Positions 61,661 through 64,000 of a DNA stretch of 64,000 bases are shown one piece after another (positions within the stretch are counted from its first letter, which is position 1; every line of letters begins with the position of its first letter). The stretch spans positions 79,192-143,191 of the IMG/VR virus record IMGVR_UViG_3300050821_002957; one strand, written 5' to 3'. Below the pieces are notes generated by a model, which saw nothing but the letters and a program-made list of their open reading frames with translations, did not search any database and had not been told where the DNA came from. The stretch comes from a virus. Made by a program: the position numbers and the translations under genes.

Positions 61661-62500
61661 TCATCGGTTCTCGAATCTGTCTTCAATTTCACGGACCAAA
61701 TCAATGAATCCCGGCATTCTCTTCACATCTGGGTGCCACATGAAACCCAATTCGATCATGTCCAATGTATCGACAATACGTGCGCCAGGAATCTCATTAC
61801 CGGCTACGTCACGTTCACGATCCATAATCCATACCGTATCTGCAATCGCCAAAGCCGAAGGAATGTCATGCGTCACCATAATGATCGTATTTAAATCATC
61901 CTGGTTCGCAACTTCCTGAACGAGCTTCGCCACTCGATTCTTGTTCTTTACATCCAATCCGGCAGTTGGCTCATCCATCAACAAAAAATGTTCTGAGCAC
62001 AAAAGTTGCTGGGCAATGGCGACTCGCTGTCTCTGACCACCAGAAAGTTGCGCCGGATATAATTCAGCCTTATTGACCAAATCAAAACGGTTCAGCATCT
62101 CCATGCATTTTTCGTAACCATTCTTTTCGTTGCATCCGGTCTGCTTCACCGAAACCATCAGATTGCTCATGACGGTACGGTTACGATACAGATAATACTG
62201 CTGAGAAACCATTCCGACGAGGCCAGGAGCGACCGGAGTACGACCATGCCCCAAGTATACATTGCCTGTCGTCGGCTTCTGAAGCCCCGCCAGAATGCGA
62301 AGAAACTGGGTTTTACCGATGCCTGATGGTCCGAGGAAAGCGATAATCTGCCCGGTCACGTCATTGGCAAGCTCAGGCCGGATCAAGTTGTCGATTTTAA
62401 CGTTGATGTCTCGAAGAATTAAATTCGATCCATACGACAACGAAACATTCTCGACGGAGAGAAGCGTTTCTGTTCTTGCATATGACATGACGGCACCCAT
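61661..62500 (-). CDS. ABC transporter ATP-binding protein (NitT/TauT-like)
   Basis: Walker A GPSGIGKT, ABC signature LSGGQRQRVAIAQQL, Walker B LLMDEPTAGLD, H-loop MVTHD. Confidence 0.75.
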   Translation of the reverse strand: MGAVMSYARTETLLSVENVSLSYGSNLILRDINVKIDNLIRPELANDVTGQIIAFLGPSGIGKTQFLRILAGLQKPTTGNVYLGHGRTPVAPGLVGMVSQQYYLYRNRTVMSNLMVSVKQTGCNEKNGYEKCMEMLNRFDLVNKAELYPAQLSGGQRQRVAIAQQLLCSEHFLLMDEPTAGLDVKNKNRVAKLVQEVANQDDLNTIIMVTHDIPSALAIADTVWIMDRERDVAGNEIPGARIVDTLDMIELGFMWHPDVKRMPGFIDLVREIEDRFENR

Positions 62501-62748
62501 TAAAAGTGGTTTCCCCAGCGGATGTCTTGCATAACCTTGATAGCTGCTTCGACACCAGCGTGTTTTGTAACCGCCTGAGCTACATCGTCGATCAAGCCAC
62601 CGATACTATGAGCATTTTCGGACTCCGCACGCTCATTCAAGTCTCGGACAATTTTTGCGAGCTTTGTTTCTGGTTTCATTTTCATCCTCCAAAAGTTTCT
62701 GTGTACAACTGACGAATCTCCATCAAAGTAGTCTGGCGAGAATCCCAA
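62500..62748 (-). CDS. hypothetical small protein in the ABC operon
   Basis: 82 aa; its stop lies about 9 nt upstream of the ATPase ATG. Confidence 0.4.
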   Translation of the reverse strand: MGFSPDYFDGDSSVVHRNFWRMKMKPETKLAKIVRDLNERAESENAHSIGGLIDDVAQAVTKHAGVEAAIKVMQDIRWGNHF

Positions 62749-63053
62749 TAAGCCAAATTAAAACAAAATTCCTTTTCCAAATTTTGCTTACACTCCAATA
62801 TCAGAGCATCAAGCGTATTCCGAAATAGCACTTTTGGATCTGGTAGGCTCACTGTCTTCTTTTGCCCTCTACAAATTTCCTCGCCGCATTCGGAACCCTT
62901 CCAAGTTGCATTGACGGTTGATCGGCGCTTTACCGTATGCCCACAATCCAAATACAAAGTCCAGTTACAATATCCACTATACCCTGGTCGCTGCACTTCA
63001 GGAAAATCAGGAACCGCCCGGACAACTTTCCGATACCGGCCCTTGGTTCTCAT
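62682..63053 (-). CDS. Cys-rich small protein in the ABC operon
   Basis: 123 aa, CNWTLYLDCGH...CGEEIC. Its start ATG overlaps the stop of the upstream small ORF (ATGA). Confidence 0.4.
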   Translation of the reverse strand: MRTKGRYRKVVRAVPDFPEVQRPGYSGYCNWTLYLDCGHTVKRRSTVNATWKGSECGEEICRGQKKTVSLPDPKVLFRNTLDALILECKQNLEKEFCFNLAYWDSRQTTLMEIRQLYTETFGG

Positions 63054-63220
63054 TTCTTTTTCTTTCCTGGCACAATGATATCTTTCAAAGGAATCCAGAT
63101 CGAATAGCTATCAAATTGAACTTCGATAACTTCTTGTCCAAGAGTCCGTACCGTTCCTTTGACAAGAAGTTTACTCCCAGGTCGGCCCTCTTTCAATTGC
63201 GAAAGTTCCCGTTTGGTCAT
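63050..63220 (-). CDS. small protein (56 aa) in the ABC operon
   Basis: MTKRELSQLKEGRPGSKLLVKGTVRTLGQEVIEVQFDSYSIWIPLKDIIVPGKKKK, with ATGA overlaps at both ends. Confidence 0.3.
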   Translation of the reverse strand: MTKRELSQLKEGRPGSKLLVKGTVRTLGQEVIEVQFDSYSIWIPLKDIIVPGKKKK

Positions 63221-63357
63221 TTCTTTTTCGCCTTTTCTGCTTCATGATATTGTATCGCTTCAGCCACCACTTCTTCGACATCTGCTACCTTCATACCACA
63301 GCCAAGAAGTTCTGTGACCAAATCCCAAAGACGATCTGATGGAGAAATTATGGTCAT
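63217..63357 (-). CDS. small protein (46 aa) in the ABC operon
   Basis: MTIISPSDRLWDLVTELLGCGMKVADVEEVVAEAIQYHEAEKAKKK. Its ATG overlaps the permease stop (ctcATGAcc). Confidence 0.3.
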   Translation of the reverse strand: MTIISPSDRLWDLVTELLGCGMKVADVEEVVAEAIQYHEAEKAKKK

Positions 63358-64000
63358 GAGCGTTCCATTCCTAGGCTGGCGTAAGGACATGCTAGTTTCT
63401 TGATGTACTTGATTACCGCATCCTGAAAGAATCCAATGAGCATGATGACAAAGAGAGCACAGAAAACCCGGTCGAGCTTGAGGTACTTGTTCTCAATCTC
63501 CATCATCGCACCAATTCCACCTTCATCACGGAAACGACCTTCGACCATCGGAAGCATCATCCATCCCATCGCCACATTGACTGCTATGATGTCGATGACT
63601 TGATCCATCGTTCCCAAAACAACAACTTCCCAGACCACTCGCCATTCACTCATACGAAGTGTCCGACTGTGATCAAACAAATCTTTCGGAATATTTTCAA
63701 TCATTTTAGTCAGACTCAAAACTGTGAAGACACCCATTCCAAAAACTAAGAGCGCAACTTTCACGTCGGCATGACTATGAAAAACAGACATGAACACAAT
63801 CGGCAGTCCGACAAATCCATTAAAACGACCCAGGCTTACAATTTTCGCCAATGCTGCCCCGGCTGGCGTCACACTCAAAATTGAAAGTGGATACGAAATC
63901 GAGAACATGATAGCGATTGATGTAAGATTCAGTTGCATCGAGTCCCACAGTCGAATCCCCATACCTTCTTGGAACCACAAAACCGGGAACGCCTGAATCA
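63354..64000 (-). CDS. ABC transporter permease (TauC/SsuC/PhnE-like), 5' end beyond the window
   Basis: Multi-TM protein with a permease EAA-loop-like segment (DHSRTLRMSEWRVVWEVVVLGTM, like ASRWQ.FW.VVLP). The reading frame stays open to the window edge (...DSGVPGLWFQEGMGIR), so it is a partial gene. Confidence 0.6.
   Translation of the reverse strand, partial: IQAFPVLWFQEGMGIRLWDSMQLNLTSIAIMFSISYPLSILSVTPAGAALAKIVSLGRFNGFVGLPIVFMSVFHSHADVKVALLVFGMGVFTVLSLTKMIENIPKDLFDHSRTLRMSEWRVVWEVVVLGTMDQVIDIIAVNVAMGWMMLPMVEGRFRDEGGIGAMMEIENKYLKLDRVFCALFVIMLIGFFQDAVIKYIKKLACPYASLGMERS

Follow-up and report, generated by a model that had tools for sequence, protein, structure and literature searches.

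What an ATP-binding cassette (ABC) importer does in a phage genome, and whether the small open reading frames (ORFs) strung between its permease and its ATPase belong to it, are the questions raised by positions 61661-64000 of a 64,000-nucleotide stretch of viral DNA (IMG/VR record IMGVR_UViG_3300050821_002957, positions 79,192 to 143,191; hereafter the window). An earlier note on this DNA had described here an importer-type operon in a phage, and so it proved: a type I permease and an ATPase (nucleotide-binding domain, NBD) are encoded on a 404-kb contig that also carries baseplate genes and 24 tRNA genes. The window holds the 3′ two-thirds of the operon, whose full order is cc227 (a coiled-coil protein), tm362, a binding protein of 614 aa, p125, permease, s46, s56, s123, s59 and ATPase. 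We favour, with a probability of about 55%, the reading that this phage-encoded operon is a PspA-linked ABC importer that serves as an envelope and membrane maintenance module and not for simple nutrient scavenging.

A complete importer inside a very large phage genome

Coding within 61661-64000 is on the minus strand throughout. The ATPase, which the earlier note had called complete, matched Pfam ABC_tran (PF00005) at 86 bits (cutoff 25 bits, E 4e-24), and Walker A (GPSGIGKT), the Q-loop, the signature (LSGGQRQR), Walker B with the catalytic glutamate (LLMDEP) and the H-loop (VTHD) could all be read in its sequence. Its top NCBIfam matches were the importer NBDs PhnT2, CysA and PotA, all under the curated cutoffs (PhnT2 157 versus 458 bits). 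The permease call held in a profile search, with Pfam BPD_transp_1 (PF00528) at 40.8 bits over a gathering cutoff of 26.4; its proposed NitT/TauT-like character agreed with the best NCBIfam matches, SaoP, TauC, NtrB and SsuC, which were weak and far under the curated cutoffs (TauC 26 versus 342 bits). The catalytic motifs of the ATPase, together with a family-specific C-terminal motif (PGA..I..YDL.E.GLAW), were kept in 59 viral and 73 cellular homologs (n=132), and the coupling-helix motif of the permease, a degenerate EAA-like D-x-(A/S)-R-T-L-x-M-S-E-W, was kept family-wide (~60 viral and 73-76 cellular members). The persistence of the motifs of both subunits in 59-60 viral and 73-76 cellular members suggests that the transporter is functional.

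The earlier note had also reported no binding-protein gene inside the window. None lies there, because the window edge cuts the operon; extension of the contig past position 64000 recovered the full permease and, ~640 nt beyond the edge, the gene for a binding protein. With an NBD, a BPD_transp_1-type permease and a cognate binding protein all present, the system is, as read from its sequence, a type I (binding-protein dependent) ABC importer. The binding protein is laid out as an N-terminal signal anchor, a disordered linker, a ligand-binding domain of the TauA/SsuA/NrtA fold and a C-terminal OmpA-like domain. Its AlphaFold (AF2) model, built from 54 homologs, had a predicted local distance difference test score (pLDDT) of 90.4 and a predicted template-modelling score (pTM) of 0.85. 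Foldseek on this model assigned residues ~85-475 to the class-F periplasmic binding-protein fold, with target template-modelling (TM) scores of 0.77 to TauA (6ssy), 0.74 to SsuA, 0.64 to NrtA and 0.61 to CmpA and with further matches to ThiY and Thi5, at ~10% sequence identity to any solved binding protein. The binding domain had no Pfam NMT1 match, and a profile search against PDB sequences matched the OmpA part alone. Sequence searches thus see only the C-terminal OmpA domain, and a fold search was needed to reveal the binding domain. No NCBIfam match reached the cutoff for curated membership in TauA/B/C, SsuA/B/C or NrtA/B/C, the likeness to these families being at the level of the fold only.

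The OmpA domain matched PF00691 at 52.8 bits and resembled the C-terminal domains of OmpA in fold (TM-score ~0.8). Its peptidoglycan-binding residues (TD...N..LS..RA and NRRV; T543, D544, N552, L555, R559 and N602-V605) were invariant in 54 sequences. At the other end, a hydrophobic helix (residues 5-28) without a lipobox is followed by the linker, which was modelled with low confidence. Because a signal anchor lies at one end and an OmpA domain at the other, the binding protein would be expected to be tethered both to the inner membrane and to peptidoglycan.

We give almost no credence to the reading that the operon comes from bacterial DNA, through host contamination or chimeric assembly with a phage contig. 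In its favour, the closest annotated homologs are in bacterial metagenome-assembled genomes (MAGs), at ~40% identity. Against it, the exact ATPase protein was found on a 404,282-bp metagenomic contig (ena:ERZ27253678:k141_5803278, locus L001), in which the operon lies 240-250 kb from the start with phage-type genes on both sides; phage genes in the window encode T4-like baseplate wedge and hub proteins and a 2261-aa PHROG-358 protein. In L002 and in L006 (ena:ERZ25039518:contig_18430, a 370-kb relative) the operon has the same DNA ligase as its neighbour, and the viral copies form an old, diverse lineage. The earlier note had named deviant guanine-cytosine (GC) content as a sign of a chimera; that of the operon is 0.45-0.46, like the rest of the window. 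Uniform GC, the position inside the contig and synteny with relatives therefore argue together that the operon belongs to the phage.

Predicted PspA-like partners and the distribution of the module

Encoded upstream of the binding protein, tm362 has two transmembrane helices followed by long helical hairpins that appear to be of the PspA/Vipp1 kind. Its AF2 model had a pLDDT of 70 overall and >90 at residues ~110-220, with a pTM of 0.41, and the ten top Foldseek matches in the PDB were all Vipp1 or PspA (E 1e-3 to 3e-2). Aligned by hhalign with the PspA family that lies beside the cellular modules, tm362 gave a probability of 80% (E 1.4e-5). The alignment is anchored at the start of helix 1, where the invariant R91...D101-P-I-G-IL of tm362 falls on R...EDPE.IL of PspA, defining a DP(I/E)xIL motif. 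No match to Pfam PF04012 at threshold was obtained for tm362, and its profile had no significant match in Pfam or among PDB sequences. The cellular TM-Snf7 family was also tried as a relative of tm362 and was rejected (hhalign probability 7.5%, no detectable relation).

By tblastn over related loci, the conserved unit is (cc227)-tm362-binding protein-permease-ATPase; the small ORFs and p125 are not kept. Synteny of the tm362-binding protein-permease-ATPase core was followed through loci L002-L007, 61 IMG/VR loci and 80 genome loci. A hidden Markov model of tm362 matched 60 of the 62 viral loci, in 54 of them directly upstream of the binding protein, and 17 of 71 genome loci; the binding protein adjoins the permease in 58/61 viral and 77/80 genome loci. 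The 61 IMG/VR loci came from an alignment scan with the binding protein and lie on contigs of up to 578 kb; the same scan of GTDB reached at least 572 species genomes. The bacterial matches are mainly in Acidobacteriota, Myxococcota and Armatimonadota, and among those listed are Mb-scale contigs and an isolate, Abditibacterium utsteinense. Among GenBank phages the binding protein was found only in one unannotated 462-kb uncultured phage (LR756500.1), and a megablast of window positions 58-64 kb against GenBank phages gave no match.

The partners differ between viral and cellular loci. Among the cellular loci without a tm362 match, a canonical PspA_IM30 protein (PF04012, 61.8 bits, cutoff 33.9) lies directly upstream in 14, a ~300-aa transmembrane coiled-coil protein lies past the ATPase in 30 and a classical AAA ATPase (PF00004) is present in 10. 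Canonical PspA is lacking in the phage loci. By tblastn, neither the cellular transmembrane coiled-coil family nor the AAA family was found in the window or in L001, and among ~70 viral loci each had a single match (L025 and L041). In a neighbour-joining tree of the binding protein, midpoint rooting was uninformative and a bipartition analysis was used in its place. The best division by partner type had an F1 of 0.96: the PspA/AAA type holds 60 of the 62 such cellular loci, and the tm362-type side holds 56 viral and 15 genome-binned loci, including Acidobacteriaceae contigs of 1.3 and 6.6 Mb. The mean binding-protein distance is 0.60 among viral copies versus 0.38 among cellular ones, and this higher divergence of the viral copies argues for long residence in phages.

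Several genome-binned loci deserve separate mention. In L149 (GCA_044450585.1, a 'Polyangiales bacterium' MAG, 49-kb contig) and L150 (a 549-kb JGI contig), the module sits amid many short hypothetical genes with a pair of cc227/tm362-sized genes upstream, and the contigs look phage-like; at least some MAG-binned matches are probably mis-binned large phages. The phage-type architecture (genes like cc227 and tm362, then binding protein-OmpA, permease and ATPase) also occurs on Mb-scale bacterial contigs, namely L143 (6.6-Mb Acidobacteriota), L105 (1.3 Mb) and other Acidobacteriaceae/Terriglobales, which group with the viral clade and could reflect phage-host exchange or integrated elements. In Abditibacterium utsteinense (L133), PspA and AAA genes are downstream of the ATPase, not upstream, and ahead of the binding protein-OmpA gene lies one for a second binding protein (2421-3668; Pfam SBP_bac_11), which is OmpA-less and has a similar anchor at its N-terminus.

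Nutrient, sulfur or phosphonate acquisition had been the first function proposed for the operon. In the corresponding rival account, the system is a plain auxiliary metabolic importer for NitT/TauT-type uptake of sulfonate, nitrate, bicarbonate, phosphonate or a vitamin precursor, and tm362 and cc227 are unrelated neighbours. The set of importer parts is indeed full with motifs intact, the fold is nearest to TauA, SsuA, NrtA, CmpA and ThiY, and PHROG 293 places ABC transporters in the category 'moron, auxiliary metabolic gene and host takeover'. This account, however, ignores the PspA-like membrane protein linked to the module in nearly all viral loci, and the binding-protein phylogeny tracks partner type. 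The cellular homologs stand beside PspA, Snf7 and AAA+ genes and not beside genes of sulfur, nitrogen or phosphorus assimilation; nutrient scavenging needs no peptidoglycan anchor; and no equivalog-level match to a substrate-defined family was obtained. We therefore regard a plain nutrient importer as possible but unlikely.

In the PspA-linked membrane-maintenance reading that we prefer, the binding protein would stand in the periplasm during infection, with tethers to both inner membrane and cell wall, and would capture a small solute that the permease and ATPase then import. On the cytoplasmic face, the membrane-anchored PspA-like tm362 and cc227 would stabilise or remodel the inner membrane, and the module as a whole would maintain an intact, energised host membrane during the long infection cycle of so large a phage. 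With a genome of 404 kb, the phage could plausibly gain a selective advantage from preserving the integrity and energisation of that membrane. Six points weigh against this proposal. The system is known from computation alone, in phages and in bacteria. The link between tm362 and PspA comes from moderate scores, and long helical hairpins attract spurious matches. The relationships of cc227 were drawn by jackhmmer with a coiled-coil protein and may be inflated. Part of the 'genome' loci may be mis-binned phage contigs. The operon boundaries were drawn from the spacing of the genes and from a terminator scan that is weak evidence. Finally, AAA+ and TM-Snf7 are missing from the phage loci, and the phage system may therefore operate in another way.

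PspA owes its name, 'phage shock protein', to the fact that it is triggered in host cells by components of phages. A bolder form of the proposal, which we hold as speculation with the odds well against it, is that a clade of very large phages carries an ESCRT-III/PspA-type remodelling protein physically coupled to a wall-tethered importer as a 'phage-encoded phage-shock system'. Such a system would sense a periplasmic solute that reports envelope damage, would repair or reshape the inner membrane and might control the timing of lysis or build infection-specific membrane structures; the permease-ATPase junction would be a landing pad for fast-evolving accessory or anti-defence micro-genes.

Relation to known systems

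The nearest described system is the bacterial one of Ravi et al. 2024 (PMC11237479, Table S3 and Text S2.2), who list an architecture of PspA, TM-Snf7, a double AAA+, a PBPb-OmpA binding protein and an ABC permease and ATPase and propose that it links ESCRT-III-like membrane remodelling with solute transport. The cellular loci with PspA_IM30, the transmembrane coiled-coil protein and AAA show exactly that arrangement. Neither the paper nor its supplement mentions viruses. The phage operon shares with it the three-gene core in the same order, at identities of ~40% (binding protein), 35-50% (permease) and 42-53% (ATPase), and has a PspA-superfamily protein (predicted, in the case of tm362) directly upstream of the binding protein. 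It differs in having a PspA-like protein anchored by two transmembrane helices in place of the soluble PspA, in the presence of cc227, in the absence of TM-Snf7 and the double AAA+, in a binding protein of a separate clade and in variable small-ORF inserts at the binding protein/permease and permease/ATPase junctions. Thus the cellular system is already known, having been noted computationally; what appears to be new is a distinct and widespread variant in very large phages, in which a putative PspA-like partner is transmembrane-anchored, AAA+ and Snf7 are lacking and small genes have settled in the junctions. Searches of the literature on jumbo and huge phages for ABC transporters, OmpA or PspA returned no report of the module.

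Parts of the operon recall other families. Like the NitT/TauT importers (TauABC, SsuABC, NrtABCD/CmpABCD; Transporter Classification 3.A.1.16/17), it has a binding protein of that fold (TM-scores 0.61-0.77), a permease with weak TauC/SsuC/NtrB matches and a short NBD without a large regulatory domain. Unlike them, its binding protein is signal-anchored and OmpA-fused, at ~10% identity; no curated cutoff is reached, and its genomic partners are of PspA type, not assimilation genes. With PspA/IM30/Vipp1 of the ESCRT-III superfamily, tm362 appears to share the alpha1-alpha2/3 hairpin and the DP-x-x-IL motif at the start of helix 1, and its best fold matches are Vipp1 and PspA. It remains under the PF04012 threshold and has two N-terminal transmembrane helices where PspA has a free amphipathic helix alpha0, and the phage loci are without PspB/C/F or Lia partners. 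The C-terminal OmpA-like domain with canonical peptidoglycan-binding residues in an inner-membrane-anchored protein resembles the anchors of MotB/PomB, TssL, Pal and YiaD type, except that in the phage it is appended to the solute-binding domain of an ABC importer.

Phages are known to encode ABC parts, among them cyanophage pstS and the components in PHROG 293/2392 (PHROGs category 'moron, auxiliary metabolic gene and host takeover'). These are usually single parts that plug into host systems, whereas here a whole importer and a PspA-like partner are encoded and kept across a clade of very large phages. A 'pspA-like' gene of Jug-phage adjoins terD, a context unlike that of tm362.

A phage-encoded PspA-like protein with a wall-tethered importer offers one specific possible answer to the question of how very large phages maintain a working host envelope in long infections. 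The phage-borne version is compact, with four to five genes, and would therefore make the widespread bacterial PspA/Snf7-ABC system more tractable experimentally.

Small genes at the operon junctions

The earlier note had placed four translationally coupled ORFs of 46, 56, 123 and 82 aa between permease and ATPase. The first three stand as given (Table 1). The fourth had been extended to 62748 by use of a TTG start; a length of 59 aa is more likely, because GGAGG precedes the ATG, the source gene caller chose that start and the L007 homolog begins at the same Met. ATGA overlaps occur at three junctions, permease/s46, s46/s56 and s56/s123; s123/s59 is a 2-nt spacer and s59/ATPase a TAATG overlap. 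Two of the ORFs had been described as Cys-rich, which is true of s123 alone (six Cys, against one in s46 and none in s56 and s59). Searches of Pfam, NCBIfam and PHROGs with the four ORFs and p125 found nothing significant.

Table 1. Features of the operon and its end, in window positions unless marked L001
Feature	Position	Strand	Remark
Binding protein, 614 aa	L001 6017-7861		
p125, 125 aa, between binding protein and permease	L001 7910-8287 (window-equivalent ~64214-64591)	-	TAATG overlap with permease start
ABC permease, 286 aa in full	63354 to beyond 64000 (L001 8287-9147); initial ~71 codons outside window	-	Pfam BPD_transp_1
s46, 46 aa	63217-63357	-	~59% identical in L007 only
s56, 56 aa	63050-63220	-	70% identical in L007 only; ATGA overlap on each side
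s123, 123 aa, Cys-rich, zinc-ribbon-like	62682-63053	-	At this position unique to this genome
s59, 59 aa, most conserved insert	62500-62679	-	88% identity in L007, 42% in L006, 56% in P0172
ABC transporter ATP-binding subunit, 279 aa, final gene of the operon	61661-62500	-	Pfam ABC_tran
Terminator-like hairpin, probable operon end	61605-61621 (L001 10880-10896)	-	Consensus scan; ~40 nt past ATPase stop

Three of the ORFs are real genes, as judged from their ratios of nonsynonymous to synonymous substitution against L007, a relative of 80% identity: 0.12 for s46, 0.13 for s56 and 0.03 for s59, similar to the 0.08-0.14 of the transporter genes. All three recur in L007, and s59 alone recurs in L006. 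The s123 slot of L007 is filled by an unrelated 84-aa ORF, and s123 is absent at this position from L006, L007 and all other loci. Relatives of s123, sought with HMMER in the full library, are a few small proteins that share a basic N-terminus and a C-x7-C-H...C-x4-C region and differ in their C-termini; at least one adjoins a sliding-clamp-like gene, in a context unrelated to the transporter. In 5.8 billion proteins s59 has three relatives only, and it lies directly upstream of the ATPase in all three loci of known context; it may be a lineage-specific accessory protein.

The junctions themselves behave differently in phages and in cellular genomes. The permease-ATPase gap has a median of −2 nt in genome loci and exceeds 300 nt in none of 76, as against a median of 149 nt in viral loci, with 23 of 60 over 300 nt. 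Between binding protein and permease the corresponding medians are −33 nt (2 of 71 genome loci over 300 nt) and 86 nt (22 of 61 viral loci). No ORF family in the permease-ATPase slot is common to loci other than near relatives; none of the 76 measured genome-collection loci and only a minority of the 60 viral loci have the small ORFs of the window, and other phages have unrelated ORFs there or none. The permease-ATPase junction in phages is a hypervariable slot. The same holds upstream: p125, for which tblastn found no match in any fetched locus, is another lineage-specific insert, and in phages insertions also cluster between binding protein and permease.

These observations bear on the claim, made when the chain of micro-ORFs was first noticed, that it is atypical for NitT/TauT/PhnCDE loci. 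The gap statistics, the lack of families across loci and the occurrence of s123 relatives elsewhere indicate that the micro-ORFs are fast-turnover, phage-specific passenger genes and not a feature of the transporter. They would be unrelated, lineage-specific phage genes that have colonised the permease-ATPase junction and ride on the transcription and translational coupling of the operon. The opposite view, in which they are true accessory subunits or regulators, for instance coupling the transporter to the PspA-like protein, can point to the tight translational coupling, to purifying selection on s46, s56 and s59 and to the constant position of s59 directly upstream of the ATPase. Their absence from every genome-collection locus and most viral ones, the unrelated ORFs or empty slot elsewhere and the unrelated contexts of s123 relatives speak against it, and we consider it quite improbable. 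Operon junctions that serve as insertion hotspots for small phage genes call for caution against reading coupled micro-ORFs as subunits of the flanking machinery.

The slot also bears on a defence function, which had been raised as an alternative use of the transporter. The operon would then be an envelope device of competition or defence that blocks superinfection or counters host defence, for example as an inner membrane-peptidoglycan tether or by export or import of a signal, with the small ORFs as anti-defence cargo. Hypervariable small-ORF slots do resemble the accessory and anti-defence hotspots of phages, the OmpA domain is like the ZorB/MotB peptidoglycan anchor, and the s123 relatives are free-standing small phage genes. 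PADLOC, however, matched no system and returned generic domain matches only (the ZorB peptidoglycan-binding domain and ABC-fold ATPases), and many bacteria carry this core on their chromosomes, as on the Mb-scale contigs and in the Abditibacterium utsteinense isolate. We judge a defence device improbable.

Terminator-like sites of the kind found past the ATPase are no commoner than in shuffled sequence, which makes the hairpin weak evidence for the operon end. A 47-aa ORF (61521-61664, minus strand) has an ATGA overlap with the ATPase stop, and in L007 a different gene abuts the ATPase. The 47-aa ORF is probably no gene, because the source gene caller did not call it, the L007 gene differs and the terminator-like hairpin lies inside it. 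Further downstream (window 57937-59262, minus strand; L001 13266-20516) are an ATP-dependent DNA ligase, a 2-oxoglutarate/Fe(II) (2OG-Fe(II)) oxygenase, an HNH/HTH protein, a thioredoxin and a nucleoside deoxyribosyltransferase-like gene. The 24 tRNA genes (27497-60864, all minus) are scattered singly or in small groups among small ORFs, with two tRNA-Asp and one tRNA-Thr directly downstream of the operon region (60335-60864).

The ATPase itself varies among near relatives. In L006 (10932-12863) the orthologous protein is 643 aa long and contains a ~334-aa intein within Walker A (GPSGCGK|C...VTHN|T), with two LAGLIDADG motifs and precomputed Pfam matches to Hom_end_hint and LAGLIDADG_3. The ATPases of L006 and L002 have a ~40-aa Cys-rich N-terminal extension, which that of the window is without.

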